Below the pieces are notes generated by a model. It searched no databases. It had not been told where the DNA came from and was given only the letters and a program-made list of their open reading frames with translations. The translations under genes were made by a program, and so were the position numbers. Below, piece by piece: positions 32,224 through 53,577 of a DNA stretch of 64,000 nt (the stretch's first letter is position 1; each line of letters opens with the position of its first letter). The stretch spans positions 14,330 through 78,329 of the forward strand of contig JAKLFP010000010.1 of the NCBI GenBank assembly GCA_022711115.1, written 5' to 3'. The stretch comes from Candidatus Omnitrophota bacterium. Lineage in GTDB: Bacteria > Omnitrophota > Omnitrophia > Omnitrophales > Aquincolibacteriaceae.

Positions 32224-32340
32224 CGAACTTTTATACTAACTACTGCGTTATTGCCATTTTATGGGTTCGCAGGAAGGTACCGTTAACCCATAAAAGTAAC
32301 CGTTAAGCGGTACTAAAAAGAATCAAACGCGGAGTCCAAA

Positions 32341-33756: not shown

Positions 33757-33759
33757 GCA

Positions 33760-36700
33760 ATGAGTTTACCGGAATTTTCGATCAAGAAAAAAGTAACCGT
33801 TTTCATGATGACGGCTTTGCTTTTCTTGATGGGAGTCTTGTCGTTTGTTCGTCTTCCGCAAGAACTTTTCCCTCCTATTACTTTTCCGCAGGTGACGGTC
33901 GTCACGGATTATTCGAACGCTGCGCCGGAAGAGATTGAAACGCTTATCACCCGCGTGATCGAAGAAGCGATCGGATCTGTTGCCGGCATGAAACGCAGCG
34001 AATCGATCTCGAGAGAAGGCCGCAGTACGATCACCGTGTCCTTTAATTGGGGGCAGGACATTGATTTTGCGGCCCTTGCGCTCAGAGAAAAAATCGATCT
34101 GATCAAGGAGAGACTTCCCAAAGAGGCTTCGGACCCCGTAGTTTTAAAGTTCGATCCGCTCTCCAAACCTATTTTGATTATTTCCGTGACCGGACCTGAG
34201 ATCCCGCCCGTGCGTTTGAAATTTTTAGCTGAAAAAATGATCAAGGACCGTCTGGAAAAAGTGGAAGGGGTTGCCTCGGTCAGTATTTCCGGCGGTGTGA
34301 ACCGTGAAATTCTTGTGGATGTGGATCAGCCGCGTCTTCAGGCGAACAATCTTTCACTTCTTGAGATCGTGAATTCCCTGGATGAAGCGAATGTGTCCTA
34401 TCCGGCCGGGAGTATCAAAAAAGGCCTTTATGAATATCTGATACGTACGGTTGGAGATTTCCGTTCGCCGAATGAGATTGGTTATGCGGTAGTCGGTGTT
34501 GATACCGTTGATAAAGGAAGACGTGAAGACACCAGCTTTGTGGAACGTGACAAGAGCGAGGGCCCTCGTGAGACGATCGAAAGGTTTCGTGAGGAAGTCA
34601 TCAAGAGGATGCTGGAAAAACGGCTTGTGCTCGTCAAGGATGTTGCGAAGGTCACCGACGGTCGAGCTGAGATCACCAGTATTTCCCGTTATAACGGTGA
34701 AGCCAATATTTCTCTTTCGATTCAGAAACAATCCAATGCGAATACGATCAAGCTGGTGGAGCAATTAAAAAAGGAATTGGCCGGTTTACAGGATGACCTT
34801 ACGTCGCGGGGCCTCAAAGCAAAAATTATTTATGATCATTCTATTTTTATCAGGAATAGCCTGGATGACCTGGCCATGCAGGCCATGTTGGGAAGTGTTT
34901 TTGCACTGATCTCGTTGTTTCTTTTTTTAAGGTCTTTCGCCATGGCGGTGCTGGTTGTCTTTTCGGTGCCCATGACGATCCTTGGTGTTTTTTTGTGTAT
35001 GTCGCTTGGGAAGGTGACGTTGAACATGATGTCCCTTGGAGGTCTTGCGCTCGCGATCGGTATGATCACCGATACGAGTATTGTCGTGTTGGAAAATATT
35101 TTTCGCAAACGTCAAGAAGGCGCAAAACCGGAAGAAGGAGCGATTGAAGGTGCTACCGAGGTCATTTGGCCGGTGGTATCTTCGAACTTAACATCGATCG
35201 CTGTATTTTTCCCTCTCATTGTGTTCGTGCCGGGTATTGCCGGGCAGTTCTTTAAAGACCTTTCCTGGGCCATCATTTTTTCCCAGATCTTTTCCACGAT
35301 CATCCCGCTGACGCTGATCACCATGCTTTCGATCTATGTGATAGTCAAACAGCAGGAATATAAACCTATCAGCTTAACGGGTTCCCTGGATCAGTACCTC
35401 TTGAGCCTCCCGACGCCGCAGATGCAGAACCAAACCATGATTGCCATCCTTGTCGCGGCGTTTATTTTACTGGCATCCACTTTTCTGATCGTTCCGACCA
35501 TGGATTGGGAAGTGCTGCCCAAGGTGGACCAGGGGCAGCTTTATGCGAAAGTGGATATGCCGCTTGGCACAAGGCTTCAGATTACGGATGAGCTTTGCCG
35601 GAAATTGGAAGAGATCATCAGCGATGAACCTGAGGTCAGAGACATTGCGGTGGCTGTGGGGAGCGAACGAGGTGCCAAGGGCAAGGGGGAGATCAAGATT
35701 GAAGCGCTGCGGCCTTCACAGGCGATGATCCTGATAAGTTTGCACGAAAAAAGAAAGCGATCTTCGGCGCGTGTCATGGCCTCGATCGCCAAAAAAATGA
35801 AAAAACTTGAAATAGAAAAAAAGAACATCCGTATTGAATTGGCCCTTCAAGGGAATGAGTTCGCAACGGTTGGGACATCGATCAAACCGATTATTCTGGA
35901 AGTGAAGGGTTATGATTTTCAAACCATGGAAGCGACCGTGGAGCACTTGAAGAGGCGTTTGGCCGAAATCCGCGGGGTAATTGATATCGGCAGTGATATG
36001 GGAGAGAAGTCTCCGGAGACAAAACTGGATATTAAGAAAGATCGAGCGGCTCTTTACGGGATCTCCGCGATGGATATCTCTTTGACCGCGAAGGCTGCTA
36101 TTGAAGGAGTGGTCGCAACGGAATATCGTGAAGCAGGACGGGAAGTGGATGTACGCGTGCGTTTGTCCAAAGAGGACCGTGCCAATATCAGTAATTTAAG
36201 CAATCTTCTTCTTTATTCAAAAACATTGGATATTCACGTCCCTCTCAAAGAGATTGCGAAGATCAAACAAGGGCTTGGTCCCAGTGAGATCAAGCGTCTC
36301 GACCAGGAAAGAACGGTCACGATCTCCGCAGACATCGATAGGAGCCGGCAGGACAAAGATGTCCTCTCGGACGTTCGTAAGCTGCTGGCGAGTCTCAAGA
36401 TTCCTGAAGATATTCCCCAGGATTTTCAGGTCAAACTCTCCGGCAAGGCAAAAGAGATAAGCGAGAATTTTGGAAGCGTGATCTTCGCGTTTATTCTGGC
36501 AGTATTGCTTGTTTATATGATCATGGCGGCTCAATTTGAGTCCTTTCTCCAGCCGCTGATCATTATGGTGACCGTTCCGCTTTCTTTTGGCGGCGCGATC
36601 ATCGCCTTGAAAATTACCGGAAACTCCTTGAATGTGATATCGCTTTTGGGTCTGGTTCTTTTGGGCGGTGTGGTCGTCAACAACGGTATCATCCTCATGG

Positions 36701-37017
36701 AGTACATCAACCAGTTGCGGGCCGAAGGGATGGAGCTTGTCGAAGCGGTTTGGCTTTCGGTGCGGACCCGTACCCGGCCTGTCTTGATGTCATCCGTGAC
36801 GACTATTCTTGGCATGCTGCCGGTTGCGGTAGGGATCGGGACCGGTGGGCCTGCCATTCTGTCGCCGCTTGCCGTAACGGCCATGGGCGGTCTTTTTTCT
36901 TCGACGCTTTTAACCTTGATTGTCCTGCCTTGCCTGATGATCCTTGTGACTCGGTTTATAGAATCCCATTTTGGCATCGAGGAGGAAACCATAGAGGGGG
37001 AAGCGGGCGCTTCTTAA
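33760..37017 (+). CDS. RND multidrug efflux transporter (AcrB/HAE1 family)
   Basis: 1085 aa, 12 TM helices, two large periplasmic loops; N-terminus FSIKKKVTVFMMTALLFLMGVLSF is typical of AcrB. Confidence 0.9.
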   Translation: MSLPEFSIKKKVTVFMMTALLFLMGVLSFVRLPQELFPPITFPQVTVVTDYSNAAPEEIETLITRVIEEAIGSVAGMKRSESISREGRSTITVSFNWGQDIDFAALALREKIDLIKERLPKEASDPVVLKFDPLSKPILIISVTGPEIPPVRLKFLAEKMIKDRLEKVEGVASVSISGGVNREILVDVDQPRLQANNLSLLEIVNSLDEANVSYPAGSIKKGLYEYLIRTVGDFRSPNEIGYAVVGVDTVDKGRREDTSFVERDKSEGPRETIERFREEVIKRMLEKRLVLVKDVAKVTDGRAEITSISRYNGEANISLSIQKQSNANTIKLVEQLKKELAGLQDDLTSRGLKAKIIYDHSIFIRNSLDDLAMQAMLGSVFALISLFLFLRSFAMAVLVVFSVPMTILGVFLCMSLGKVTLNMMSLGGLALAIGMITDTSIVVLENIFRKRQEGAKPEEGAIEGATEVIWPVVSSNLTSIAVFFPLIVFVPGIAGQFFKDLSWAIIFSQIFSTIIPLTLITMLSIYVIVKQQEYKPISLTGSLDQYLLSLPTPQMQNQTMIAILVAAFILLASTFLIVPTMDWEVLPKVDQGQLYAKVDMPLGTRLQITDELCRKLEEIISDEPEVRDIAVAVGSERGAKGKGEIKIEALRPSQAMILISLHEKRKRSSARVMASIAKKMKKLEIEKKNIRIELALQGNEFATVGTSIKPIILEVKGYDFQTMEATVEHLKRRLAEIRGVIDIGSDMGEKSPETKLDIKKDRAALYGISAMDISLTAKAAIEGVVATEYREAGREVDVRVRLSKEDRANISNLSNLLLYSKTLDIHVPLKEIAKIKQGLGPSEIKRLDQERTVTISADIDRSRQDKDVLSDVRKLLASLKIPEDIPQDFQVKLSGKAKEISENFGSVIFAFILAVLLVYMIMAAQFESFLQPLIIMVTVPLSFGGAIIALKITGNSLNVISLLGLVLLGGVVVNNGIILMEYINQLRAEGMELVEAVWLSVRTRTRPVLMSSVTTILGMLPVAVGIGTGGPAILSPLAVTAMGGLFSSTLLTLIVLPCLMILVTRFIESHFGIEEETIEGEAGAS

Positions 37018-37022
37018 AATCG

Positions 37023-40000
37023 ATGGGTCTTCCCAGTTTTTCAATTAAACGCCCGGTTTTGACCGGGATTTTGTATGCCGCTATCGTCATTTTAGGTCTC
37101 ATCTCTCTTTCCCGACTCAAGGTGGAACTTTACCAAGGCCAAAGCATGAGTATCATCAGCATTGTGGTTCGTGCGCGCGGCGGTCTTCCATCCGAGGATG
37201 TCGAAAAAATGATCACCAAACCCATCGAAGAAGCCATCGGAACCGTCGGCCACATGAAGGGTCTTTATTCCAGTTCCCGTGAAGCGGAATCGCGCGTGAC
37301 CATGGAATTTGAGCCTGGAACGAACATGAATTTTGCCTCCCTTGAGATTCGAGAAAAATTCGCGCGCGTCAAGCCGTTATTGCCCAAAGAAATCGAAAAA
37401 CCGGTCATTGCCAATTACGACGATGCCCAATCCGCCATTGTATCTTTTGCCGTGACATCGGAGACGTTGTCGCCGGAGCAGATCCGCGAGGTGGTGGATG
37501 TGAAGCTCAAACCTGTGGTGAGCCGTGTGGATGGCGTGGCAAGTGTGGAAGTGTACGGTGGCCGCGAACGAAAGATTCTTGTGGAACTCGATCGGGACAA
37601 GATGGTGGCCTATAACATTTCCATTGAAAGGGTGATGGATGTTCTCGGGCAGAGCAATATCAATCTTCTTGCCGGCAATGTGGGCACCGGAAAATACGAA
37701 TTTGCGATCCGGAGCATGGGGGCCTTTTTGTCCGTGGAAGATATCGGGGAAATCGGAGTGAAGGCGACCCGCCAGGGTTCGATCATTCCTCTCAAAGAGA
37801 TAGCGACCATCAAAGATTCTTACATGGAAGCTACGGATCAGGCGCGCCTGAACCTTGAACAGAATGTGACCGTCTATATCAAAAAGGCGAGTCTTGCGAA
37901 CACGCTTGACGTTGCAAAAAATCTGGACAAGGTTCTGGATGCTTTTGAAGAGGATCAACACGGAAATTTAAAGATCGTTTATGTCAGCAACAAAGCGGAA
38001 ACCATCGAACGTGCCATCAACGATGTCAAAGAGGCCCTTTACATCGGACTTTTCCTGACCATGGGAGTGATTTATGTCTTCATCCGCAACTGGGTCCTTT
38101 CAGCGATCATTCTTGTGGTCATTCCGTGTTCTTTGATCACAACCTTTATCTTTATGGCGGCTTTCGGGATCAGCCTTAATGTGATGACGCTGAGCGGGCT
38201 TGCCTTGTCGATCGGGATTTTGGTAGATACCGCAGTCGTGATCATGGAGAACATCTTTTCCAAAAAGGAAAAAGGGCATGCGGACCTTTATGCGATCCGC
38301 GAGGGCAGCGAAGAGGTGTGGTTGCCCCTGTTGACTTCGCTTTTGACCATGCTGGTCGTGTTTTTGCCGCTTGTCCTGATCAACAAAACCATCCAGCTGA
38401 CCTATTGGGGATTTGCCTTCACGATATGCGTGTCCTTGATTGCATCTTTTTTTGCCGCGCTGATGCTTATTCCCATGATGATCCGTCAGTTCGGGATTGC
38501 GGCGCTGAACAGACACCGGCCGGACACAGCCAATACTTTTATTGAGAAATCACGCGAAAGGTATGTGAAAGCCATACGCTGGTGCATTGCCAAGCGGAAG
38601 CTTGTGGTTTTAACGGTGATTCTCCTTTGCGGGATAGCCGTGTGGCGTCTTATCAAGACTCCTTTCGATCTTCCCTCAACTTTTGAAGAAAATGAATTTG
38701 CGGTCGTGACTTTCCCTTTGGCTGGCGCCCGCCTGGAAACTAATGATGAGGTCATGAAAAAACTCGAGGGCATTTTAAGCCAGATTCCGGATGTGACGCT
38801 TTTTTCCACGACCGTCAGCAGGGATGATCTCCGTCTTTTTATCCGTCTCAAACCCGCCCGAAAAAGGACCTATTCGAAAGATGAGATTATGAAGCTGATC
38901 GACGAAAAGGGAAATGCGGCCATCAAAGAGGTCCATCCGGACTATAGTCTGATTGTGGATGAAGGGGCAGGTTCTTCGGAGTCTAAAAAACTGATCGTAA
39001 ACATCTATGGGCAGGACGGCGACGAACTTGAAAGACTTGCCAAGGCCTTTGCGCAAAAAATGTCCAAGGTTCCGGGGCTTACCAATCTTGTGATGACCGA
39101 CCTTCGCAAACGGCCGGAATATGCACTGGTGGTGGATAAAGGCAAGGCGGCCATGTATGGACTTTCGGTGAGGAAGGTGGCAGATACCATGCATGCCCAA
39201 ATCCGAGGCATGAGGCCCACCAAATTCCATGAACTGACCAAAGGGCAGGAGATAGAAACCATCACGCGCCTGCAAGCGATCTATCGGCAAAAACTGGAAG
39301 ATCTCGGGCAGATCTATGTGGAGACGAAGGATAATACCACGATTCCGATTAGTGAGATTGCCAATTTCTATCCCAGCACAGGCCCGCAAACGATCGACCG
39401 GAGGGATAAACACCGGTACGTGTTTGTCAAAGGGGATATGAAAAAGCCCATGGAGCAAATCGCTCAAGACGTGAAAAAGGCATTGAAGGATGTCAAACTT
39501 CCCGATGATTATTACTGGCGTTTTGCCGGTTCCTATGATGATATGATGGCCAGCAAGAGCCAATCGACGCTGGCGTTGCTGCTGACTTTCTGTCTGGTTT
39601 ATATGGTGATGGCCTGTCTTTTTGAAAACTATCTTTATCCTCTTCTCATTATGAGCAAAATTCTTCTGAATTTTATTGGTGTTTGGATCGCTCTAGCGGG
39701 TGGCCCGATCGGGGCGTTACAGCAAATGGCTCATGGCGCCAGCAGTTTTCCTTTATTCGGAGGGCTCTTTGTCCCATTGGATTTGATGCTCCAGAAAACC
39801 TTGGAATTTTTTCAGCAAATCCCTTTTTTCGGGGGCCTTTTCATCCAAAGGCCCTTAAGCACGCAGGCTTTGATCGGGATGATCATGTTGGCGGGGTATT
39901 CGGTGAATGCCGCGATCCTCTTGGTGGATCATGCGCTCCATCTGTCTAAAGAAGAAAGCAAGGAAGAGCGTTTTATCCAGGCGGGAGTCGACCGTCTTCG

Positions 40001-40262
40001 GCCGATCATGATGACAGCACTTGCCGCGATTCTCGGATTTTTGCCGATGGCATTAAATTTGGGATCTGCCAGTGATCTATGGTCGCCTTTGGCGGTAACG
40101 ATCATCGGCGGACTCATCAGTTCGACGACCCTGATTCTTTTTGTTTTGCCCGCGTTGGTCATGCTGACGGATGACATTCAGAAATTTATAAAAACTTTTT
40201 TTGCGGCAATCATCGAGAGACTTCCTTTTCATCAAGTTCGCAGAGTAGCTTCCAGTTCTTAA
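37023..40262 (+). CDS. second RND efflux transporter (AcrB-like paralog)
   Basis: Start reassigned to the ATG at 37023 (MGLPSFSIKRPVLTGILYAAIV...), 6 nt after the stop of the first pump. 1079 aa RND topology. Confidence 0.88.
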   Translation: MGLPSFSIKRPVLTGILYAAIVILGLISLSRLKVELYQGQSMSIISIVVRARGGLPSEDVEKMITKPIEEAIGTVGHMKGLYSSSREAESRVTMEFEPGTNMNFASLEIREKFARVKPLLPKEIEKPVIANYDDAQSAIVSFAVTSETLSPEQIREVVDVKLKPVVSRVDGVASVEVYGGRERKILVELDRDKMVAYNISIERVMDVLGQSNINLLAGNVGTGKYEFAIRSMGAFLSVEDIGEIGVKATRQGSIIPLKEIATIKDSYMEATDQARLNLEQNVTVYIKKASLANTLDVAKNLDKVLDAFEEDQHGNLKIVYVSNKAETIERAINDVKEALYIGLFLTMGVIYVFIRNWVLSAIILVVIPCSLITTFIFMAAFGISLNVMTLSGLALSIGILVDTAVVIMENIFSKKEKGHADLYAIREGSEEVWLPLLTSLLTMLVVFLPLVLINKTIQLTYWGFAFTICVSLIASFFAALMLIPMMIRQFGIAALNRHRPDTANTFIEKSRERYVKAIRWCIAKRKLVVLTVILLCGIAVWRLIKTPFDLPSTFEENEFAVVTFPLAGARLETNDEVMKKLEGILSQIPDVTLFSTTVSRDDLRLFIRLKPARKRTYSKDEIMKLIDEKGNAAIKEVHPDYSLIVDEGAGSSESKKLIVNIYGQDGDELERLAKAFAQKMSKVPGLTNLVMTDLRKRPEYALVVDKGKAAMYGLSVRKVADTMHAQIRGMRPTKFHELTKGQEIETITRLQAIYRQKLEDLGQIYVETKDNTTIPISEIANFYPSTGPQTIDRRDKHRYVFVKGDMKKPMEQIAQDVKKALKDVKLPDDYYWRFAGSYDDMMASKSQSTLALLLTFCLVYMVMACLFENYLYPLLIMSKILLNFIGVWIALAGGPIGALQQMAHGASSFPLFGGLFVPLDLMLQKTLEFFQQIPFFGGLFIQRPLSTQALIGMIMLAGYSVNAAILLVDHALHLSKEESKEERFIQAGVDRLRPIMMTALAAILGFLPMALNLGSASDLWSPLAVTIIGGLISSTTLILFVLPALVMLTDDIQKFIKTFFAAIIERLPFHQVRRVASSS

Positions 40263-40315: not shown

Positions 40316-40909
40316 ATGAAAGAAGATCAGAAGATTGAAGCAATTCGACGGTCCAATCAAAGGAAGGTGAGAAATATTCTTATTCACCGGCCCATGCAGC
40401 GGGAATTTTCATTTATGCTGATCGCGCTTTTCATGGTGTCTTCCGCGGCCATTGCGTGGGTGATCCATCAAACCATCCGGGATGCCGCGTTCGGCGGCGG
40501 GTTCTATTTCGGGAAGGTGAATCCTTTTCAGATCCTTTCGGATGTCAGCTACCAGATCATCATCAGGGTCACATTGGTGTTGATTTTCACGCTCATCCTG
40601 ATCGGCAGCTACGGGATCACTTTCTTGCATCGTGCGGCCGGTCCGGTTTTTCGCTTTCGTCAAACCCTGCTGAAGATCAATCGCGGAGAATTACCCTCCG
40701 AGATTACTCTTCGCGAGGGAGACTTTTTTCATGAAGTGGCGCAGGACATCAATGTCATTATCAAGCGCCTGAAACTAACCCACGAGAAGATGACAGAACT
40801 TAAAACGAAATTAAACGATGCCCATCATCTGGCCACTTCCGATGAATTGAGACGAAAAATCGAAAATATGCAAGCCATGCTTGATTCTTTTTCCAAAGAA
40901 GCTATTTGA
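40316..40909 (+). CDS. small membrane protein with two TM helices and a HAMP-like domain
   Basis: Two TM helices, then an amphipathic AGPVFRFRQTLLKINRGELP...FFHEVAQDINVII segment resembling HAMP. No output domain. Confidence 0.5.
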   Translation: MKEDQKIEAIRRSNQRKVRNILIHRPMQREFSFMLIALFMVSSAAIAWVIHQTIRDAAFGGGFYFGKVNPFQILSDVSYQIIIRVTLVLIFTLILIGSYGITFLHRAAGPVFRFRQTLLKINRGELPSEITLREGDFFHEVAQDINVIIKRLKLTHEKMTELKTKLNDAHHLATSDELRRKIENMQAMLDSFSKEAI

Positions 40910-41204: not shown

Positions 41205-41831
41205 ATGAAGAAGCTGAATTTGATTGCAATGCTGTTGTTTGTTGCGGTGATAGTTCTCGGTTTTGGGGCTATCGCGCATGCGGCTGATCCTGTAGTGCCT
41301 GCTGCGAGTTCCGGTAATGAGCTGATGCTCGCGGATTTCGATACTGGAGATAAGCCGAATAATGTCGGCGGTGATTTCGGTGCTTGGGATAAGGACCCTA
41401 ACGATGATACCCAAGGATGTCAGTTGTCCTTCGAGACGGATGATGCCAAGGGGGAAACGGGCGGCTATTCGATCCGTTTGAACTATGATGTCGACTCTCC
41501 GAATCCTGCTTATAACGGTTTCTGGATGAAATTGAATGGCGAGGATGCTACCGCTTACAACACCCTGAATTTCTTTGTGAAGGGTGACGCAAAAGTCGGT
41601 TTCACCAAACGCTTCAAGATCGAACTCAAGGATATGACCAACAAGCCTTCCGCTTACATTGTGAGCGGTGTGACGGATCAGTGGCAAAAGGTTTCGATCC
41701 CGTTCGAAAAATTCCGCAGAATTGAAAACTGGAATTCTTTGAACGAATTTGTCATCGTTTTTGATGACATCAACACGAGTCCGAAGACCGGCTCCATTTT
41801 GGTTGACGATATCTCGCTTTCGAAGCAATAA
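41205..41831 (+). CDS. secreted hypothetical protein (signal peptide; beta-sandwich-like)
   Basis: Signal peptide MKKLNLIAMLLFVAVIVLGFGAIAHA; Asp/Gly-rich beta-strand-like sequence; monocistronic with its own terminator. Confidence 0.6.
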   Translation: MKKLNLIAMLLFVAVIVLGFGAIAHAADPVVPAASSGNELMLADFDTGDKPNNVGGDFGAWDKDPNDDTQGCQLSFETDDAKGETGGYSIRLNYDVDSPNPAYNGFWMKLNGEDATAYNTLNFFVKGDAKVGFTKRFKIELKDMTNKPSAYIVSGVTDQWQKVSIPFEKFRRIENWNSLNEFVIVFDDINTSPKTGSILVDDISLSKQ

Positions 41832-41864
41832 TCGAAGCGTTTTACGTTATCGACGGTTTTTAAA

Positions 41865-41898
41865 ATAGCCGACCCTAAAAAGGTCGGCTATTTTATTT
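41865..41898 (+). terminator. rho-independent terminator
   Basis: Stem ATAGCCGACC/GGTCGGCTAT with loop CTAAAAA, followed by TTTTATTT. Confidence 0.75.
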
Positions 41899-41997
41899 GG
41901 AGCTCAAGTTTTCTTAGAGACTTTTTTTACGTAACCTGTTGTTAAATTTAGACTTAAAACTTTAAAAAGGCCGTTTTTTGTCGATAATAAAAATACC

Positions 41998-43581
41998 ATG
42001 ACTGACACCGGGGAAAAGGGAAAATCCGAGAACGAATTTGTTGTCAAGGCAAGCCGGATCTTGCTGGCCAAACGCTGGCAGGTGCTCCGTCTGATCACGC
42101 AGGTCCAGGACTATTCCCGCTATATGCCCAACGTGAAAGAGTGTAAGGTCTTGAGCCGCAATCGCAATCGCGTCGTGACTCTTTGGAAAGTCGAGATGGG
42201 GAGGATCCCGATCTCCTGGCAAGAAGAAGATACCTTGGACTTCCGGGATTTCCAAATTCACTTCAAAACCATCGATGGGGATCTGGAGAAATTCGAGGGC
42301 TATTGGAAACTCCAGGAGCATCCTTCGGGAGGTACCGAGGTTTTTGTGGAAGCGACCATCCGTCTGGGCATTCCCATCGTTGAAAATATTGTCGGGGGTA
42401 TGGTCGCGGAACGGGTCAAAAAGAATTTAGAAGCCATCCTCCGGGCTTTCGAAGAAGCCCTCACGGCCCGCCGTTATCAAAAAATCCGTTCCCGAGGCAG
42501 TCATGATATCAAAGGTTTTGGGGTGATCGGTCATCCTTACAATTTGAAGCATCTTGTCCAATACCTTAAATCCTTCAATCCGGCAATGCGGGTCCCGTCG
42601 CCGGAATTTCTTTCGAAAGTTTTTGAATTGATGCCGTCTTATGTGACGCATGAAATTAAAAAGTTCCAGGCGGCGAGCGGGAAAAATGTCCATGGCTCTT
42701 TCATCATGTGCAATATCATTCCCGATATGCTGGATAAGGATATCGAGCAAGTCGTCCGCAAAGTAGTGGAATCCTGCAAGGTGGCGGAAAAACTCGGCCT
42801 GGGCATCGTTGCGCTCGGAGGGTTTACTTCGATTGCGGGTGAAAAATACGGCGATCAGTTTCGACAACTTATCAATGTCCCGGTGACAACCGGGAACACC
42901 CTGACGGCTGCCATGGCGGTCGAAGGTGTCTTGAAAGCGGCGCGTTTGCGGGGTTTAGATCTTTCCCAAGCCAAGGTGACTGTGATCGGGGGCGTTGGCG
43001 ATATCGGAAGTGCCTGTGCTCGTTCTTTTGCGCGCAAAGTTAAAGAGATAACCATTACAAGCCGGAGTGCCGAACATCTTGAAAAAGCCCGCTTCATGCT
43101 GGACGGTTTTCCCGCTAAATTTTCCGGCAGTCACGACAATAATGCGGCCGTGCGGGATGCGGACATCGTCATTGCCGCCGCGAGCGCGTCGCAATCGATT
43201 GTGGAGATCTCCAGTTTTAAGTCAGGGGCCATTGTGTGCGATATCGGCTATCCAAAAAACATCGCTTACGCCGATACGGATCGAGAGGACATTCTTATTT
43301 TTGCGGGCGGGATTTGTTCCTTGCCGCAGGAATTGAATTCGGGTTTTGATATCGGTCTGCCTTCTTCCAAGGTACTCTACGGCTGTTTCTCGGAGGCCAT
43401 TGTCCTTTCCCTGGAAGAGCGTTACGAGAATTATTCGTGGGGAAAAGGCAATATCACCGAGGAAAAGATGGCGGAGATCCTTGCCATGGCCCGCAGGCAC
43501 GGTTTTGAGCTGGCGCCCTTTTTCTGGGGGCACCGGCAATTGAGCGACGAAGAGATTCAGGCCATTAAGGTAAAATCATGA
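41998..43581 (+). CDS. SRPBCC (polyketide-cyclase/START-like) domain fused to an acyl-ACP reductase (AAR)-like NAD(P)H-dependent domain
   Basis: N-terminal 140 aa has a Polyketide_cyc2-like pattern. C-terminal about 340 aa shares a run of motifs with cyanobacterial AAR as I recall it: GVIGH, ALGGFTSI, TTGNT, VIGGVGDIGSA, DIGYPKN, YGCFSEA and YSWGKGNITEEKMAEILAMARRHGF. No search was run. Confidence 0.65.
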   Translation: MTDTGEKGKSENEFVVKASRILLAKRWQVLRLITQVQDYSRYMPNVKECKVLSRNRNRVVTLWKVEMGRIPISWQEEDTLDFRDFQIHFKTIDGDLEKFEGYWKLQEHPSGGTEVFVEATIRLGIPIVENIVGGMVAERVKKNLEAILRAFEEALTARRYQKIRSRGSHDIKGFGVIGHPYNLKHLVQYLKSFNPAMRVPSPEFLSKVFELMPSYVTHEIKKFQAASGKNVHGSFIMCNIIPDMLDKDIEQVVRKVVESCKVAEKLGLGIVALGGFTSIAGEKYGDQFRQLINVPVTTGNTLTAAMAVEGVLKAARLRGLDLSQAKVTVIGGVGDIGSACARSFARKVKEITITSRSAEHLEKARFMLDGFPAKFSGSHDNNAAVRDADIVIAAASASQSIVEISSFKSGAIVCDIGYPKNIAYADTDREDILIFAGGICSLPQELNSGFDIGLPSSKVLYGCFSEAIVLSLEERYENYSWGKGNITEEKMAEILAMARRHGFELAPFFWGHRQLSDEEIQAIKVKS

Positions 43582-43691: not shown

Positions 43692-46157
43692 ATGACAAAC
43701 ATCATGCATGTTTTTGAACTCAACTTCTATGCCGTGCCCCTTGTCGTGGTCGGGCTTCTGATGTTTCTGACCGGGCTTTACATTTTTCTCCACAACAAAC
43801 ACTCCCGCGCGAACTTCTCCTTTTTCCTGATCTGCCTTTGCGGTCTTTTTTGGTTTTTCGGAAATGCCGCGACCTATTCGGCGCGCACGCCGGAAGCCGC
43901 GCTCGCTTTTTACAGGGCGGTCACGTTTTTGGGCGTGGCCCTGATCGCGCCCTGTGTTTATTATTTTTCCGCAAGCTGGTTGAATCTTTTTGATAAGCAA
44001 AAGGCCGGCGTGCGGACCGCGCTTTTCTTGGGGGCTGCTTTTTATATTGTAGGGCTTTTTTCTCCAAGAAGTTTCCCCGGCGTCCGGCATTATTTTTGGG
44101 GCTACTATCCGGTCTATGGGCCGCTGAATTACTATTTTCTCGGCTATTTTTATCTGGTGCTGGCCAATGCGTTCTATAATTTTTTCAGGGCCTATTTCAA
44201 AGAACCGCGGGGTGTTCGCCGTACCCAGATCCGATTGATCACGCTCAGCTTTGTGGTGGCCTTTTTCAGCTCGCTTGATTATCTGCCGAAGCTGCTCTCT
44301 TATCCGGTTTATCCGCTGGGTTTTCTCCTCGTCTTTTTGTGGATCCTGATCGTGGCCTACGCCATCATCAAATACAGGGCCATGGATATCGAAACCGTGG
44401 TCCACAAGACCTTGATGTGGCTGGCCACCTCGGCGGTGGCGGTGGTGCCGTTCCTGGCAGTGATCTACGGGTTTGAAAAGATCCGGAATCCTTCCTCGAA
44501 CTTGCTTTCGACACTTTATTATTTTACGGTTTCGATCGCTTTTTATTTTTATTTCCGGGCCATCCAGCCGCGGCTGGACCATTGGTTCCAGCGCCGGCGC
44601 ACGAACCTGCTGGCGATTCTTGAGCAATTCTCCAAGGAGCTCGTGCATTTGAAGAACCTGCGCGACCTTCTGCAAAACTTCGCCCGCATGCTCCGGAACA
44701 AACTTTTTGTCCGCAGGCTTTCGGTCTACCTGTTGGATGAGAAAAAAGGGGAGTTTGTTCCCGCGATCGCCAAGGGGCTGCGCAGCTTAAAACCCTTTCC
44801 CAAGGGGCATCCCTTTTTTTCGTGGCTCGAGAAAACGGATGCCGTGGTGGTTGGGGAACTTGTGCTGGCGGATCCCTCCGTCGAAACGTTCAAAAAAGAA
44901 TTAGAAGATTATTTTCAGGCAACCCAATCCTTTTTAAGCGTGCCCTTTGTGCTCGGCGGGAAATTGATCGCCCTAGCGAACCTCGGCAAAAAAGCAAATC
45001 TGCGCCGGTATGGTTTTGAAGAAGTCCAATTTTTCGCCAAACTGAAAGCGCCGCTTACCATTGCCTTTTCGAATTCCATGCAGTTTGAGAATATTTCCGA
45101 ACTTTACAACCAGGTCCGCAAGATGAGCGAAGAACTGAAGCAATGGAACATCGAGCTGGAACAGCGCGTGGAAGATCGGACGCGCGAGTTGGTGAAAACC
45201 CAGGACCAGCTAGTGCAGGCCGAAAAACTCGCGACGCTCGGCACGCTTGCCGGCGGCGTGGCGCATGAGATCAACAATCCCTTGACGGCAGTTCTGACCA
45301 ACGCGCAGATCCTCAAAATGACGGCGGACGAAGATGTCCGGGAATCGCTGGACCTGATCGAGGAGGGCGCGAAGCGGTGCCAGCAGATCGTCCAAAAGCT
45401 CATGAAATACGCGCGTAAGACCGCGGAAGAGGCGCCGCACAAGGAAGTGGATCTGAATGAAGTGGTGCAAGGGACGTGCGCGCTTCTGGGGTTTCAATTT
45501 CAGCAAGAGAATATCGAGATTGAGACCAAGCTGGGCCAGATCCGCCGCGTGATGGGAATCGGCAATGAGCTGGAGCAGGTGCTTACGAACCTTCTTGTGA
45601 ACGCCCGGGATGCCATTAAGTCCAATCCTCAATCAAAAGATTTAAAGGTTAATGGGACTAGTCCTGGCAACCTTCAGTCAGAAGAAGATAGATGCCAGGG
45701 CAAATCCCATTCTCCATCAAAAGATTTAAAGGTTAATGGGACTAGTCCTGGCAACCTTCAGTCAGAAGAAGATAGATGCCAGGGCAAATCCCATTCTCCA
45801 TCAAAAGATTTAAAGGTTAATGGGACTAGCCCTGGCAACCTTCAGTCAGAAGAAGATAGATGCCAGGGCAAGTCTGCAAGAAGCCAAGGCCGGATTGTGG
45901 TCGAAACCCGCGGGAAGGGAGCCATGGTGGAACTTGTGGTCACGGACAACGGCATCGGTATTCCCAAAGGAAACCTCAAAAAGATCTTCGATCCCTTTTT
46001 TACGACCAAAGAGGTCGGTTCCGGTACTGGGTTGGGGCTTGCGGTCAGTTACGGCATCCTGAAGCGGCATAATGCTTCCGTGAGCGTTGATTCTTCGCCC
46101 GGCAAAGGTACTACCTTTGTGCTTTGCTTTCCCCGAAAGCAACAAGGTGAATCATGA
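43692..46157 (+). CDS. sensor histidine kinase (7TM N-terminal sensor, GAF-like, HisKA, HATPase_c) carrying an in-frame 3x28-aa repeat insertion
   Basis: 7 TM helices N-terminally; H-box [13 protein letters not shown]; N-box [10 protein letters not shown]; G-boxes DNGIGIP and GSGTGLGL. Three copies of [28 protein letters not shown] lie between the N box and G1 box. Confidence 0.85.
45633..45884 (+). repeat. 3 x 84-bp near-perfect in-frame tandem repeat inside the kinase ATP-binding domain
   Basis: Units start at about 45633, 45717 and 45801. A single T/C difference (actagtcct vs actagccct) separates copy 3 from copies 1-2. Confidence 0.9.
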
Positions 46158-46199: not shown

Positions 46200-46255
46200 T
46201 TAAAAATTCAAAGGTTAATTGGACTAGCCCTGGTGACCTTCAGTTAGATGAAAAA
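46200..46255 (+). repeat. diverged partial copy of the 84-bp repeat unit in the intergenic region
   Basis: caaaggttaattggactagccctggtgaccttcagttagatg aligns to the intragenic unit aaaggttaatgggactagtcctggcaaccttcagtcagaag at about 80 percent identity. Confidence 0.6.
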
Positions 46256-46319
46256 AAACAGGGGCATAACACTACCTTCACGCTCCGGTTTCCTGCGGCT
46301 CATTCATCCACCCAAAAGT

Positions 46320-47807
46320 ATGAATCCGTATAATTTTTCCATTTTGTGCTTTGGTTTTTGTTCCCTCCTCTTGGGACTTTTTGTCTGGCTCAAACGGCAG
46401 GATCGTGTCGGCCAATTGTATTTTGTGTTGTCTTTTTTTTATGCTGGTTGGGCGCTGCCATTTTCTATAAAAATCAGTGATAATATTTCCTATGCTGCGG
46501 CGTTATACGCAGCACGCATGGCGAATTGTTCCGCGGCATTTATCCCAACTGTTTGGCTTCATTTTTGTTTGGTTTATACCAAAAGAGATGAAACCCATAA
46601 AAAAATACTTAAACTTTTTTACGCAATACCGCTGCTCATTCTTGCTGTTTCTTTTACACCGTGGTTTGTCCCGGGGCTCAGACCTATTCTCAGTTTTAGA
46701 CACTATGCAACCCCGGGTATTTTTTATTATTTGATGACATTGAATTATTTTATAGTTATTCCGCTGGGCTTTAACCAGTTATTTGACAAGATGAAAGAGG
46801 TTTCAAGAGAAGAAAGGGAACAACTTTTAGGACTTTTTTTCTCGGCCTTTATTGGCTATTTGGGAGGCGCCTTAACTTTTTTGCCGATCTATGGCATTTC
46901 ATTCCCTCAAGAAGGTATGTTTCTGTTGCCGATTTATCCCTTTGCTCTGACGTACTTTATGATTAAGCAGAAGATCTTCGACATCGAGGAGTTGGCCCAG
47001 GCGGCTCATCGGGACAAGTTAACAGCGATCGGGGTTTTGGCGGCGAGCATCAATCATGAGATCAAAAATCCGCTTTTTATTATCAAGGGACTCGCGGAGA
47101 ATTGTCTGGAGCGGCAAAAGGAAGGTGTTTTTTCCAATAAAGAAAAAGCCCTGGAGAGCGCCAACGACGCGATGAAAAGGAGCGTCGAGCAAGCGGACCG
47201 GGCGATGGATATCATCCGTAGGTTGTCGCTTTTTGCCAAGGCCGGGATCGACAGTGAGATCAAATTCGAGTTTGTGAAGATCGCGGAAGTGCTTGAAAAT
47301 ATTTTGCCGCTGATCCGTTATGAACTAGCAGCGAAAAATATCGTACTGACCCGTGACATTCCGCCCAATATTCCCGAAGTCCGCGCGGACCGGCGTTATC
47401 TTGAGGAGATTCTTTTCAACCTGCTAGTGAATGCCTGCCAGGCTGTCAGGGAAACCGGACGGGAAGGGGAGATCAAAGTGACCGCGGCCGTCATTGCGAG
47501 GGAACGAAGCGACCGAAGCAATCTCCCAATTCCGGACCTTAATAAAACGGGATCGCTGCGGCCCAAAAATGGCCTCGTGATGACAACTCCTGACAAGGTC
47601 CTTATCACGATCCAGGACAACGGCCCCGGGATCCCTGAAGATAAAATCAAAGACGTTTTCCGCCCCTTTTACACCACCAAAGCCGAGGGCACCGGTCTAG
47701 GTCTTTACATCACCAAACAGCTTGTTGAAAAAATCGGTGGACGGATATCTGTTGAGTCCCAGCAAGGCATTGGCACGACTTTTAAAGTTATCCTGAAGGC
47801 AGCCTGA
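46320..47807 (+). CDS. sensor histidine kinase (7TM N-terminal sensor, HisKA, HATPase_c), paralog
   Basis: Start set at MNPYNFSILCFGF by analogy with the next paralog. H-box LAASINHEIKNPL; G-boxes DNGPGIP and GTGLGLYI. Confidence 0.85.
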   Translation: MNPYNFSILCFGFCSLLLGLFVWLKRQDRVGQLYFVLSFFYAGWALPFSIKISDNISYAAALYAARMANCSAAFIPTVWLHFCLVYTKRDETHKKILKLFYAIPLLILAVSFTPWFVPGLRPILSFRHYATPGIFYYLMTLNYFIVIPLGFNQLFDKMKEVSREEREQLLGLFFSAFIGYLGGALTFLPIYGISFPQEGMFLLPIYPFALTYFMIKQKIFDIEELAQAAHRDKLTAIGVLAASINHEIKNPLFIIKGLAENCLERQKEGVFSNKEKALESANDAMKRSVEQADRAMDIIRRLSLFAKAGIDSEIKFEFVKIAEVLENILPLIRYELAAKNIVLTRDIPPNIPEVRADRRYLEEILFNLLVNACQAVRETGREGEIKVTAAVIARERSDRSNLPIPDLNKTGSLRPKNGLVMTTPDKVLITIQDNGPGIPEDKIKDVFRPFYTTKAEGTGLGLYITKQLVEKIGGRISVESQQGIGTTFKVILKAA

Positions 47808-47810
47808 GCC

Positions 47811-49187
47811 ATGAATCCGTATAACTTCTCAGTCCTGTGTTTCGGTTTTTGCAGTTTGCTTCTCGGAATTTTCGTTTGGCTTAAGCGGCAAGATTATGTT
47901 GGGCGACTTTATTTTGCTTTATCCTTTTTTTATGCTGGTTGGGCAATTTTTATATCGATTAATCTTAATAATGACATTTCGCCGGACCTCGGTCTTCTTA
48001 TGGGGCGATTAGGGAATGGCTTTGCTATTTTTATTTCCATTATTTGGTATCATTTTGTTTTGGTTTATACAGGATTTATTGAAAAACATTACAAGTTGGT
48101 GAAGTTTTTTTACATCATCTCGATACTAACATTTTGTTTTGTGTTTTCACCTTGGTTTATTCCAAAGACAGCAACTATAGTTGGTTTTAAGCATTACTCG
48201 CAAGCTGGACCAATCCATTATTTTTTTTCATTCTTATTTTTCATTCTAGTCACACTAAGTTTTATTGAATTGCACCGGAAAATAAAGAACTCTTTCGGAT
48301 ATGAAAGAGCGCAATTCAAAGGACTTTTTTGGACAGCCCTTTTGGGGTATCTCGGAGGGAGTCCGGCTTTTCTTCCGATTTATGGGATTCCCATGCCCCA
48401 ATATTGTCTCTTTTTAATGCCCCTTTATCCATTCATGTTGGCTTACTTCATGACCAAACAAAAACTCTTCGATGTGGCGGAATTGGCCCAAGCGGCGCAT
48501 AGGGATAAACTTTCGGCAATTGGTTTATTGGCAGCCAGTATAAATCACGAGGTCAAAAATCCATTATTTGTCATTAAAGGCATGACAGAAACACAGTTGG
48601 AACGTTTGCATGACCCGACGCAGTCAACAGAAAAGTTAAGAGAAATGCTAGAAAAAACCCTTCAGCAGGCGGATCGGGCGCTTGGAATTATTCGAAGCTT
48701 TTCTGAGTATGCAAAAAGGCAAAGCTCGCGAACATTCGATAAACAAATGCTCGATATTCGAGAAGTTATTGACAATATTATTCCGTTTGTGCGCAGCGAG
48801 TTGGCTTTGGACTCTATTCACCTAGAGTTGAATATACCGGCAAAAACCATGATCTGTGCGGACCAGCAATCCATGGAAGAAATCTTTCTGAATTTAATCG
48901 TGAATGCCTGCCAGGCGATAAAAAGCACTAATAAAACGGGTGAGATTGAGATTTCATCAGAGAAAGAAGATCCGTGGATCAGGATTGCAGTGCGAGATAC
49001 CGGGCCGGGATTGTCACAGGATCAGCTTTCAAGGATCTTTGAGCCATTTTACACAACAAAAGTATCAGGGACAGGCCTTGGACTTTATGTGGTCAAGCAG
49101 CTTGTCGAGAAAAATCAAGGCAGGATTGAGGTAGTTTCAAAGATCGGCGTTGGGACCACCTTTACCCTTATCTTTTCGCAACACTAG
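47811..49187 (+). CDS. sensor histidine kinase (7TM N-terminal sensor, HisKA, HATPase_c), tandem paralog
   Basis: MNPYNFSVLCFGFCSLLLGIFVWLKRQ is almost identical to the N-terminus of the preceding gene. H-box LAASINHEVKNPL. Noticeably lower GC than the upstream paralog. Confidence 0.85.
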   Translation: MNPYNFSVLCFGFCSLLLGIFVWLKRQDYVGRLYFALSFFYAGWAIFISINLNNDISPDLGLLMGRLGNGFAIFISIIWYHFVLVYTGFIEKHYKLVKFFYIISILTFCFVFSPWFIPKTATIVGFKHYSQAGPIHYFFSFLFFILVTLSFIELHRKIKNSFGYERAQFKGLFWTALLGYLGGSPAFLPIYGIPMPQYCLFLMPLYPFMLAYFMTKQKLFDVAELAQAAHRDKLSAIGLLAASINHEVKNPLFVIKGMTETQLERLHDPTQSTEKLREMLEKTLQQADRALGIIRSFSEYAKRQSSRTFDKQMLDIREVIDNIIPFVRSELALDSIHLELNIPAKTMICADQQSMEEIFLNLIVNACQAIKSTNKTGEIEISSEKEDPWIRIAVRDTGPGLSQDQLSRIFEPFYTTKVSGTGLGLYVVKQLVEKNQGRIEVVSKIGVGTTFTLIFSQH

Positions 49188-49352: not shown

Positions 49353-50180
49353 ATGTTGTTCGAAAATATGAAAACAGCCATAGAGGATTTTTTTTATAAA
49401 AAAGTTATTCGCAATATATTAATGCTCAGCAATTTTGGGCGACGTAGCGTTTTAGGAGAAGCTGCTTCGGGTTATAATTTTGACTATATGTATGAAAATA
49501 AACCGCACGGTTTTTTAGGAATAGGATATTTAATTGATAAAATGTTGCTTAATTTACCAGCTGTTCAAGCAACCAGACTCCGGCGTGTAAATATTGTCAA
49601 AATTGTAAGCAACGAGATCGAAAACCATAGGTTACAAGGAAAAACAACGAAAATTTTAGATTTAGCATGTGGCGCAGGCCGATATCTGTCAGATATTGTA
49701 AAGATTTTTTCCAAGAATAAGATAGAGATTGTAGGAATTGATTACGATAATAAATCATTAAAATTAGCTAAAAATCTCAGTGAAAAAGAAGGTATCTCAA
49801 AGGAACAAATCAGATTTGTTAAAGGGAATGTCTTTAGGCTGAGTATTCTAAAAAAATTGGGAAAACGAGTTGATTGGCGACCTAACATTGTTATTGCATC
49901 AGGGCTGACCGTTTATATTGATGATGATGAAGTGATAAATATGCTAAAACAAATTTATGAAGGGTTAGCTCACGATGGATGCATATTAATCGATAGCCAG
50001 GAAAGCAATCCAAGTCGCAAGTTGATGGAAAAGGTTTTAAAGACCAAGCAAGGAGCTTGGATTCTTTACTATAGGTCTCCAGCACAATGGCGGCATTGGT
50101 TACATAAATGTGGGTTCAGAGATATCGTTATTAGTTGTGATCAATGGAAAATGTACAACCTATGTTCAGCGCGAAAATGA
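49353..50180 (+). CDS. class I SAM-dependent methyltransferase
   Basis: Motif I ILDLACGAGRYL plus downstream acidic and IASG motifs. Low-GC gene. Confidence 0.7.
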   Translation: MLFENMKTAIEDFFYKKVIRNILMLSNFGRRSVLGEAASGYNFDYMYENKPHGFLGIGYLIDKMLLNLPAVQATRLRRVNIVKIVSNEIENHRLQGKTTKILDLACGAGRYLSDIVKIFSKNKIEIVGIDYDNKSLKLAKNLSEKEGISKEQIRFVKGNVFRLSILKKLGKRVDWRPNIVIASGLTVYIDDDEVINMLKQIYEGLAHDGCILIDSQESNPSRKLMEKVLKTKQGAWILYYRSPAQWRHWLHKCGFRDIVISCDQWKMYNLCSARK

Positions 50181-50554
50181 TGGCAGTATCAAAACCAACA
50201 ATTTTATTAATAGATGATGATCAATTGGTGTTGCGCTCCTTGGCAAAAGCCTTGGAAAAGGCTGGTTATAATGTGTTAGCAGTAGATGGGTACGATACAG
50301 CGATGGCTGCCATTCATGATAAAAATTTTGACTTAGTTTTGTCGGATATTCGTATGCCAGGAAAGAACGGTGTTGATACTGCGAAAGAAATCCAAGATAG
50401 TTTAATTGCAAATGGTAAGAAAGATTTACCGATTATATTTATAACGGGCTATAGTGGCGATGAAGAAAAGTTGCAGACGCCTTTATTGGGAGAAACATTA
50501 TACAAACCTGTAGATATAAATCGTTTACTAACTATAATTCGGGATTATCTATGA
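50177..50554 (+). CDS. single-domain response regulator (CheY-like receiver)
   Basis: ILLIDDDQLVLRSL...LVLSDIRMPGKNG...K. Start moved to the ATG overlapping the methyltransferase stop (ATGA). Confidence 0.8.
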   Translation: MMAVSKPTILLIDDDQLVLRSLAKALEKAGYNVLAVDGYDTAMAAIHDKNFDLVLSDIRMPGKNGVDTAKEIQDSLIANGKKDLPIIFITGYSGDEEKLQTPLLGETLYKPVDINRLLTIIRDYL

Positions 50555-51798: not shown

Positions 51799-51826
51799 AA
51801 TCATGAATGTGAAGGGAGTTACGATT

Positions 51827-52108: not shown

Positions 52109-52131
52109 ATTTTGTTAAATGAGAAAATAAA

Positions 52132-52911: not shown

Positions 52912-52917
52912 AATCTG

Positions 52918-53541: not shown

Positions 53542-53577
53542 CTTTTGATTTATAACGAAACTCAGGAAAGCATCTCA

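Follow-up and report, generated by a model that had tools for sequence, protein, structure and literature searches.

Reductases of the acyl-ACP (acyl carrier protein) reductase (AAR) type have so far been known from the first step of cyanobacterial alkane synthesis and from a few natural-product pathways. In the alkane pathway the enzyme is paired with aldehyde-deformylating oxygenase (ADO), a di-iron oxygenase requiring O2. AAR holds its substrate as an acyl-Cys294 intermediate, which is reduced with NADPH, and the resulting aldehyde leaves by a tunnel to bound ADO; the exit of this acyl tunnel is found at M21/Y23/Y26, in the N-terminal region of the enzyme. In PigE/TamH and KecF the reductase is fused to a transaminase, and in the TAD domain the Thr-Thr-Gly motif contacts the catalytic Cys. 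Here we analyzed a stretch of 64,000 nucleotides of a Candidatus Omnitrophota bacterium (GenBank assembly GCA_022711115.1, contig JAKLFP010000010.1, positions 14,330 to 78,329; referred to as the window, with position 1 as its first letter) that carries a gene on the forward strand (41998..43581) in which a reductase of this superfamily is preceded by an SRPBCC domain. We found that the fusion is a conserved family in Omnitrophota and that its conserved partner, across this phylum and in distant relatives, is a seven-transmembrane (7TM) histidine kinase, with or without a GAF domain.

The gene is a single open reading frame (ORF) that begins with ATG and encodes 527 aa, and no second copy of it was found in the window. 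A first-pass annotation of this DNA had proposed an SRPBCC domain fused to an AAR-like enzyme and had listed a run of AAR motifs, all of which we located at defined positions in the protein. The product divides into an SRPBCC (helix-grip) domain including its long C-terminal helix (aa 14-161; 42037..42480), a thioester reductase domain of the AAR/COG5322 type (aa 174-505; 42517..43512) and a 22-aa C-terminal extension (LAPFFWG...; 43513..43578), the last lying past the aligned C-terminal end of Synechococcus elongatus AAR. The reductase domain carries GVIGH (aa 175-179), ALGGFTSI (aa 272-279), TTGNT (aa 297-301; 42886..42900) where the N-terminal and Rossmann domains of the reductase meet, the dinucleotide-binding loop GGVGDIGSA (aa 331-339; 42988..43014) that is the counterpart of AAR 162-GATGDIG-168, DIGYPKN (aa 415-421), YGCFSEA (aa 461-467) with Cys463, YSWGKGNITEEKM (aa 479-491) and RHGF (aa 500-503). 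An AlphaFold2 (AF2) model of the fusion, built on 50 homologues, reached a mean pLDDT of 89 and a pTM of 0.86, the latter suggesting that the two domains are packed against each other in a fixed arrangement.

Profile searches placed AAR (TIGR04058) as the best NCBIfam match of the C-terminal domain (E = 3e-49, aa 174-504), at a score of 168.2 bits that is below the equivalog cut-off of 449.7. The PigE-type profile NF053554 was nearly level with it (E = 4.4e-47, 160.9 bits), matching at profile positions 2-354 of 837, which correspond to its reductase part; the fusion protein did not reach the cut-off of this profile (850 bits), and a class III pyridoxal phosphate (PLP) aminotransferase domain was not found in it by Pfam. 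On the reductase part Pfam gave a generic Rossmann match only (Shikimate_DH, aa 321-426). Glutamyl-tRNA reductase (hemA, E = 2.4e-9) and shikimate dehydrogenase (aroE, E = 7e-4) were rejected as assignments, given that both match in the Rossmann region only (aa 321-434), with E-values about 40 orders of magnitude weaker than that of AAR, whereas the AAR match spans the domain. The best sequence match in the PDB was S. elongatus AAR (6jzq; aa 197-504, E = 1e-38, ~31% identity, 136.7 bits; phmmer), and the PigE-type reductase 4ppm matched with E = 7e-26. Structure comparison of the AF2 model by Foldseek recovered AAR chain 6jzy_A (E = 3e-25, target TM-score 0.84, 31% identity), with AAR chains overall at TM-scores of 0.82-0.86, and, more distantly, TAD chains (E = 6.5e-17, i.e. 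~1e-16; 17-20% identity). Taken with the invariant Cys and Thr-Thr-Gly described below, the shared fold, with an N-terminal domain, a Rossmann domain in the middle and a helical C-terminal domain that bears the Cys, places this part of the protein in the AAR/COG5322 thioester-reductase superfamily. The earlier description of it as AAR-like holds at the level of the superfamily only, the score being far short of the AAR cut-off and the N-terminal part of PigE matching about equally well.

With the reductase domain alone as query, 1.84 billion cluster representatives (50% clustering) were searched exhaustively. Relatives reaching E <= 1e-3 numbered 2,551, of which 314 also reached E <= 1e-30. 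The 150 relatives listed each scored at least 154.3 bits, above S. elongatus AAR with its 136.7 bits. Given that at least 150 relatives outscore it, the cyanobacterial enzyme is, as judged by these scores, a distant branch of a large and mostly uncharacterised family; by the same scores, and by the 168 bits reached against a cut-off of 449.7, the fusion reductase is not an orthologue of cyanobacterial AAR. These results bear on the possibility that the protein is an AAR orthologue working in an alkane pathway, with its partner encoded elsewhere in the genome. Such a pathway shares with the fusion the fold and the catalytic residues only, and searching by tblastn revealed no ADO gene in the window or in nine relative loci, as the first-pass annotation had stated for the window; the ADO probe was validated against PDB entries of ADO before use. 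The absence of an O2-dependent partner fits the obligate fermentation inferred for the Omnitrophota metagenome-assembled genomes (MAGs) of one Antarctic-lake study. We regard the alkane-pathway explanation as effectively refuted.

The catalytic apparatus of the reductase is intact. Invariance of residues was judged across 50 fusion homologues, and a MAFFT alignment of 11 sequences, including S. elongatus AAR and nine stand-alone relatives, served for comparison with the cyanobacterial enzyme. Cys463, the predicted acyl-enzyme nucleophile (codon at 43384..43386), aligned in both the HMMER (phmmer) and the MAFFT alignments with C294 of AAR, the residue mutated in the C294S entry 6jzz, as anticipated from the motif in the first-pass annotation. 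It is invariant in the 50 fusion proteins and throughout the 11-sequence alignment. Likewise invariant in the 50 homologues are T297, T298, G299 and N300 and, in the nucleotide loop, G331, G332, G334, D335, I336 and G337. Two of the three basic residues of the AAR pocket for the 2'-phosphate are kept (R189 as R356 and R314 as K483), the third, R193, being replaced by H360. Because the catalytic residues are intact and two of three basic pocket residues are retained, we infer from the chemistry of AAR and PigE that the domain probably carries out an NADPH-dependent conversion of an acyl thioester to an aldehyde through Cys463. Of the AAR residues that contact ADO, R79, K80 and Y247 are kept as R254, K255 and Y418, and the position of R73 is occupied by Asp249. 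The C-terminal extension is common to the fusions and the stand-alone relatives in the MAFFT alignment, with P507 and W510 invariant among the fusion homologues.

The N-terminal domain matched Polyketide_cyc (PF03364) at aa 28-147 with E = 3.9e-20 and 72.8 bits, well above the Pfam cut-off of 23.4 bits, and its predicted secondary structure (beta-alpha-alpha-beta6-long alpha) is that of the SRPBCC domain that had been proposed. The profile, alignment and fold checks suggested in the first-pass annotation thus all came out in favour of its two-domain structure. By Foldseek its closest fold is TTHA0849 (2d4r; TM-score 0.89, 26% identity), after which aromatase/cyclase (ARO/CYC) folds, then START, PR-10 and PYL folds are ranked. 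Residues R31, W63, W74, F89, G94, D95, L96, G101, W103, G124 and P126 are invariant. Mean pairwise identity within the family is 47% in the SRPBCC domain versus 60-66% in the reductase. The names that databases give to the family ('SRPBCC family protein', 'Long-chain acyl-ACP reductase', 'RatA toxin') are either too general or too specific, and the NCBI entry identical to the fusion protein (P0001) is titled 'SRPBCC family protein [Candidatus Omnitrophota bacterium]'. 'RatA toxin', a JGI label on homologues, was rejected as a generic PF03364 label, with NF007999 matching at E = 1.3e-3 and 18.9 bits versus a required 258.

A word-indexed search of protein clusters gave 627 matches, and nearly all of the 120 clusters listed were full-length two-domain fusions with 50-79% identity; wherever the source named an organism for a listed cluster, it was Omnitrophota. 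Scanning one genome per GTDB species revealed relatives in 155 species, the best 80 of which all carry full-length fusions (44-75% identity) and are nearly all titled Omnitrophota or Omnitrophica. The architecture, which had been called unusual, is thus undescribed rather than rare: in the literature we found no description of an SRPBCC-AAR fusion, of AAR homologues in Omnitrophota or of this locus. A more distant form of the two-domain module, with 33-36% identity in the reductase, occurs as plain fusions (P0166, P0171 and P0174), as PilZ-SRPBCC-reductase (P0154 and P0192) and as helix-turn-helix-PilZ-SRPBCC-reductase (P0148). Split forms exist as well. In locus L010 a 160-aa SRPBCC gene ends 6 nt ahead of a stand-alone reductase, and a Desulfobacterales locus (L092) has the order SRPBCC, GMC oxidoreductase, reductase, acyl-AMP ligase and carrier protein. 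A single set of motifs (W63, W74, F89, GD94-95, GxW101-103 and P126) recurs in the SRPBCC domains, be they fused to the reductase, encoded separately or combined with PilZ, indicating that the SRPBCC domain is an obligate partner of its reductase clade, whether fused or adjacent. One protein, P0150 (L095 4427-5935; 34% identity in the reductase domain), has its catalytic Cys replaced by Ala (IYSAFAEA) and shows a degenerate TTGN motif and nucleotide loop, and it is probably a non-catalytic derivative. The contig of L095 ends 354 nt beyond the P0150 gene.

To characterize the neighbourhood of the fusion, we counted neighbours by tblastn in 80 species loci, with denominators that vary by feature. 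In 60 of 61 species loci, a gene for a 7TM kinase homologous to at least one of the four in the window begins no more than 5 kb downstream of the fusion, on the same strand. In the window the first kinase gene, HK1 (43692..46157, forward; HisKA_7TM, HisKA and HATPase_c), directly follows the fusion, as had been noted before, and its orthologue lies downstream in 47/61 species loci, the median gap being 62 nt. The same holds for all six relative genomes compared (fusion identity 51-70%), in which the HK1 orthologue is found 3' of the fusion in 6/6. HK2 and HK3 (46248..49187, forward) are paralogous 7TM histidine kinases with the same three domains and are 54-55% identical to a pair in L007 and 31-36% to a pair in L003. 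HK4, a 7TM-GAF histidine kinase (53545..55875, forward; HisKA_7TM, GAF_3, HisKA and HATPase_c), has an orthologue (52-69% identity) in 5/6 relative loci and in 20/40 species loci, and the genes between HK1 and HK4 differ among the six relative genomes. Kinase linkage persists at 30-36% identity: in L093 a PilZ-SRPBCC-reductase gene runs 4 nt into the 7TM-GAF kinase gene that comes after it, in L094 the genes after the fusion encode a 7TM-GAF kinase and then a receiver-nucleotide cyclase, in L011 a GMC oxidoreductase and then a 7TM kinase come next to the fusion on its downstream side, and the split SRPBCC/reductase pair of L010 is flanked by 7TM kinases. In the literature that we found, HisKA_7TM is a catalogued sensor domain only, with no ligand described.

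Two further observations concern the kinases. HK1 contains at aa 649-732 (45621-45871) three tandem 84-nt copies, 97% matching, ahead of the HATPase_c match at aa 730-816, and their near-identity suggests a recent in-frame expansion. In L001, L007 and L009 a protein of ~886 aa is encoded between the fusion and HK1 (e.g. L007 11654-14314), comprising an N-terminal extended short-chain dehydrogenase/reductase (SDR) domain of the NAD_binding_4 type, which is fatty-acyl-reductase-like, and ~560 aa without assignment; this SDR protein, which was not found in the window, might reduce the aldehyde further.

We consider the following sequence of events. The acyl chain would pass from an acyl carrier protein (or CoA) to Cys463, and hydride transfer, probably from NADPH, would reduce the thioester and release a hydrophobic aldehyde. 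The fused SRPBCC domain would then receive the aldehyde, taking the role that ADO has for AAR and the aminotransferase has in PigE and KecF, and would bind and carry the product without converting it. Given that the AAR tunnel opens at the N-terminal region, that the SRPBCC domain is joined there and that pTM is high, the SRPBCC domain plausibly acts as the receiver, by analogy with these enzymes. Its handing off or sequestering the aldehyde for signalling or lipid synthesis, as suggested in the first-pass annotation, is likewise plausible. The adjacent 7TM kinases would sense a membrane-soluble ligand, which may be the aldehyde itself or a product that the variable neighbours make from it, and in some lineages c-di-GMP may control the enzyme through the fused PilZ domain. 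That the enzyme supplies the lipid ligand of the kinases is the explanation we favour, at somewhat short of even confidence; the pairing is observed, and the direction is what we infer. Three arguments favour it: the enzyme is the constant partner of the kinase while receiver outputs vary (none, KAS or nucleotide cyclase, where KAS is ketoacyl-ACP synthase), the membrane-embedded sensor regions of the kinases suit a lipid ligand, and tailoring enzymes and transporters of hydrophobes vary between loci as they do in known lipid-signal systems. Variable tailoring of this kind is a feature of CqsA/CqsS, RpfF/RpfC and PhcB/PhcS.

A wider proposal, which we put forward as tentative, is that these proteins form a new class of lipid-signal synthase in which the SRPBCC domain delivers a fatty aldehyde or derivative to 7TM-GAF kinases, amounting to phylum-wide lipid signalling in Omnitrophota and further uncultivated lineages. 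Such signalling could act between cells or within the membrane, and its outputs would fall on enzymes (receiver-KAS, receiver-cyclase), not on transcription. Several findings weigh against supply of a ligand by the enzyme. The fusion scores so far below the AAR cut-off that chain length, and even aldehyde release, would be extrapolations. The fusions of receiver and KAS, of PilZ and KAS and of PilZ, SRPBCC and reductase fit control of the enzyme by the kinase at least as well. P0150, without its Cys, suggests that catalysis is dispensable in at least one lineage, and no kinase was found near the Desulfobacterales split-gene cluster of L092. Finally, adjacency conserved in MAG-derived genomes shows linkage, not mechanism.

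The regulators encoded at these loci raise the opposite direction of control. Across genomes the receiver outputs are receiver only, receiver-KAS or receiver-nucleotide cyclase, and the response regulators at these loci are without DNA-binding domains. Response_reg and ketoacyl-synt occur as one protein in 57 of the listed clusters, the named ones being Omnitrophota (e.g. L007 19556-21235), and the same KAS clade also includes PilZ-KAS proteins and proteins in which an SRPBCC domain follows the KAS at the C-terminus (P0360 and P0369). Fusion of a receiver or of PilZ to KAS would place a condensing enzyme under the direct control of two-component or c-di-GMP signalling. In the window a receiver-only response regulator (50144..50554, forward; PF00072) overlaps with its stop the start of a FabF-like KAS gene by 4 nt (ATGA). 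These features, along with the PilZ-SRPBCC-reductase fusions and a neighbourhood containing PlsC-type acyltransferases, a HAD hydrolase, RND pumps and an HAE3/MMPL transporter, would be expected if the 7TM kinases sensed the membrane or the environment and switched on lipid remodelling via receivers (or c-di-GMP/PilZ), the SRPBCC-reductase, as one of the regulated enzymes, supplying a fatty aldehyde or alcohol from which an envelope lipid is built and then exported by RND or MMPL transporters. It is the reductase, however, that is the kinase's constant partner, with receiver outputs varying around it; minimal loci such as L008 have no other lipid enzyme or transporter inside the unit, and an envelope lipid derived from fatty aldehyde is not known for the phylum. 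We consider kinase-controlled remodelling the main rival explanation, possible but less likely than ligand supply. It and ligand supply by the enzyme are not exclusive, since a regulated signal synthase would show both features.

The architecture of P0150 raises a further possibility, namely that the SRPBCC domain senses a small molecule in the manner of PYR/PYL and that the protein as a whole serves the kinase as an accessory input, reporting the state of acyl-ACP, NADPH or lipid by binding the kinase, with catalysis secondary or absent. P0150 retains the architecture although its catalytic Cys, TTGN motif and nucleotide loop have been lost; in these lineages SRPBCC, PilZ and receiver domains are added to acyl-ACP enzymes at similar positions; and adjacency to the kinase is tight, including the 4-nt overlap in L093. 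All catalytic residues, however, are invariant in the Omnitrophota family, and the reductase is more conserved than the SRPBCC domain, which speaks for selection on catalysis. Moreover, the SRPBCC-reductase pairing is kept in the kinase-less Desulfobacterales cluster with its acyl-AMP ligase and carrier protein. We therefore judge the co-sensor role improbable.

The genes that follow the first three kinases in the window were also compared. They encode a Methyltransf_20-type S-adenosylmethionine (SAM) methyltransferase (49353..50180; PF12147, E = 4e-33), the receiver described above and, at 50551..53541, the FabF-like KAS (50551-51798), an atypical ACP (51779..52108), a crotonase (enoyl-CoA hydratase, ECH) and a GDSL hydrolase, assigned by Pfam and NCBIfam and all on the forward strand. 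By tblastn, homologues were present downstream of the fusion in 7/40 loci for the methyltransferase, 7/40 for KAS, 0/40 for ACP, 0/40 for crotonase and 2/40 for GDSL. GC content dips at ~49000-54300 to 0.33-0.41 versus ~0.47-0.55 in the flanks. Within the dip lie the genes for the methyltransferase, receiver, KAS, ACP, crotonase and GDSL hydrolase, exactly those missing from most relatives' loci. This suggests that the low-GC genes were acquired as a cassette; low GC is also seen where the kinase genes encode their 7TM regions, which blurs the downstream edge of the dip. A functional link between the fusion and the KAS/ACP/crotonase/GDSL genes, which the first-pass annotation had pointed to as lying about 7 kb away, was thus rejected, given their presence downstream in 0-7 of 40 loci and their different GC; the conserved partner is instead the sensor kinase.

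These counts also bear on a polyketide-type pathway, in which the SRPBCC domain would be a catalytic cyclase/dehydratase like the ARO/CYC proteins TcmN or ZhuI, acting on a chain made by KAS, ACP and crotonase that the reductase then releases. ARO/CYC domains (3tfz and 2rer) do rank structurally next after TTHA0849, the SRPBCC domain does have an invariant Arg and an invariant Asp, and KAS, ACP and ECH genes do lie 7 kb downstream. Yet identity to ARO/CYC domains is 13-16% only, KAS, ACP and ECH are absent from most loci and differ in base composition, and the minimal loci have no condensing enzyme at all, making this pathway very unlikely.

Across loci the cargo near the reductase includes methyltransferases, thioesterases, KAS/ACP/ECH, a thiamine diphosphate (ThDP)-dependent enzyme, GMC oxidoreductase and acyltransferases, and nearby transporters include RND pumps, a FadL-type porin and an HAE3/MMPL transporter. 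In L010 the ThDP-dependent enzyme (9123-10901) lies by the reductase, recalling the PigD/PigE pairing of prodigiosin synthesis. A GMC-family oxidoreductase lies by the reductase in L011 (3281-4579) and in L092 (6722-7999), the latter locus also having a radical SAM enzyme besides its acyl-AMP ligase and carrier protein. A giant ORF of 8,849 aa starts at 14303 in L010, about 1 kb beyond the split genes; giant genes are reported for Omnitrophota in a preprint (bioRxiv 10.1101/2023.11.21.568195).

Exploring the sequence around the fusion for transcription signals, we detected an intrinsic terminator of the upstream unit (41862..41898, forward), in which a hairpin (-22.9 kcal/mol, z = -5.7) precedes UUUUAUUU, and a promoter-like site at 41961..41988 on the same strand (TTTAAA-16-GATAAT, 9/12 matches, a consensus match only). 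The 110-nt spacer between the fusion and HK1 showed no terminator and no unusual structure. With a strong terminator before the fusion and none after it, the fusion appears to open a transcription unit running into the kinases. No riboswitch or known RNA element was found in the leader or the spacer, where the only matches were sub-threshold small RNA (sRNA) matches on the terminator hairpin.

Upstream of the terminator is an RND efflux operon (30145..40262, forward; OEP, MFP and two ACR_tran genes by Pfam), followed by unkA (40316..40909, forward), encoding two predicted transmembrane helices and a HAMP-like region, and unkB (41205..41831, forward), encoding a protein with a signal peptide. 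The two ACR_tran genes are consecutive (33760-40262) after one MFP and one OEP gene, an arrangement that relatives share; as listed, ORF 36750..40262 extends into the first permease gene, so its true start is probably near 37020. An RND operon lies upstream of the fusion in 17/54 species loci, and the RND set is present too in L008 and in the Desulfobacterales locus L092. The window copies of unkA and unkB gave no Pfam or NCBIfam match, and homologues of unkB show a weak CBM_11-like match. Both are 65-79% identical to their counterparts in L001, L005, L007 and L009; unkB is found upstream of the fusion in 29/68 loci and is 75% identical in the split-gene locus L010.

Beyond HK4 lies a second receiver-only response regulator (56480..56836, forward; PF00072, E = 7e-26), whose counterpart follows the HK4 orthologue in L001, L005 and L010. 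Between this gene and a dTDP-sugar epimerase gene, a 109-aa ORF with a GIY-YIG nuclease domain (56879-57208) has no counterpart in the syntenic region of L005 and is possibly a mobile insertion. Further downstream are the HAE3/MMPL transporter gene (58922-61270), a gene for a 513-aa protein with DUF11, CARDB and Chlam_OMP6 repeats that is probably a surface protein (61439-62980) and, after it, two tRNA genes (63441-63686).

The analysis reveals a large uncharacterised branch of the AAR family, whose nearest members are mostly non-cyanobacterial by source names and contexts. In this branch the partner that receives the aldehyde would, by analogy, be a lipid-binding SRPBCC domain, and the gene is linked to those of 7TM histidine kinases throughout a phylum of which hardly any members have been cultured. 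Should the coupling be functional, the locus gives a candidate source of ligand for HisKA_7TM. It also exemplifies two-component and c-di-GMP signalling wired straight to fatty-acid enzymes, as in receiver-KAS and PilZ-KAS, and an ADO-independent, possibly self-chaperoning producer of fatty aldehydes from anaerobes could serve oleochemical engineering.

Compared with cyanobacterial AAR (Synpcc7942_1594; 6JZQ/6JZU/6JZY), the fusion has the same three-domain fold (TM-score 0.84), the Cys column, TTGN, GxGDIG, two of three pocket residues and the ADO-contact residues corresponding to R79/K80/Y247, and AAR too hands its aldehyde to a bound partner. The fusion differs in being ~31% identical and below the TIGR04058 cut-off, in adding the N-terminal SRPBCC domain and the 22-aa C-terminal extension, in lacking ADO, and in its context of histidine kinases, not of an alkane operon, in a host that is probably an anaerobic heterotroph. 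PigE/TamH of prodigiosin and tambjamine synthesis and KecF of koreenceine synthesis have the same COG5322-type reductase, fused there to the receiver of the aldehyde; the partner here is N-terminal and has a non-enzymatic-looking ligand-binding fold in place of the PLP aminotransferase, and no pigment or alkaloid cluster accompanies it. The TAD domains of non-ribosomal peptide and polyketide synthases (CarI; 9E4S-9E56) share the fold, the invariant Cys and a Thr-Thr-Gly beside the nicotinamide, but are 17-20% identical, NAD-specific and embedded in megasynthases, with a chemistry that is not simple reduction. On the side of the N-terminal domain, TTHA0849 (2D4R) and Polyketide_cyc PF03364 proteins have the helix-grip fold in common with it, at a score above the Pfam threshold; they are stand-alone, whereas the domain here is partnered with a reductase and has its own conserved motif set.

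Among signalling systems, CqsA/CqsS, LuxM/LuxN, RpfF/RpfC and PhcB/PhcS are pairs of a signal synthase and a multi-pass receptor kinase. Our locus resembles the CqsA/CqsS-type pairs in placing an enzyme acting on acyl thioesters beside a membrane kinase without a large periplasmic domain, and in its variable tailoring; it differs in having no homology to those synthases or receptors and in regulators that are receiver-only or fused to enzymes. DesK/DesR-des of Bacillus is a membrane-fluidity circuit in which DesR is a transcription factor. Here too a multi-pass sensor kinase stands beside a lipid-modifying enzyme, but the receivers have no domain for binding DNA and in some cases form one protein with a ketoacyl synthase, so that control of lipid enzymes by the kinases would act at the protein level.

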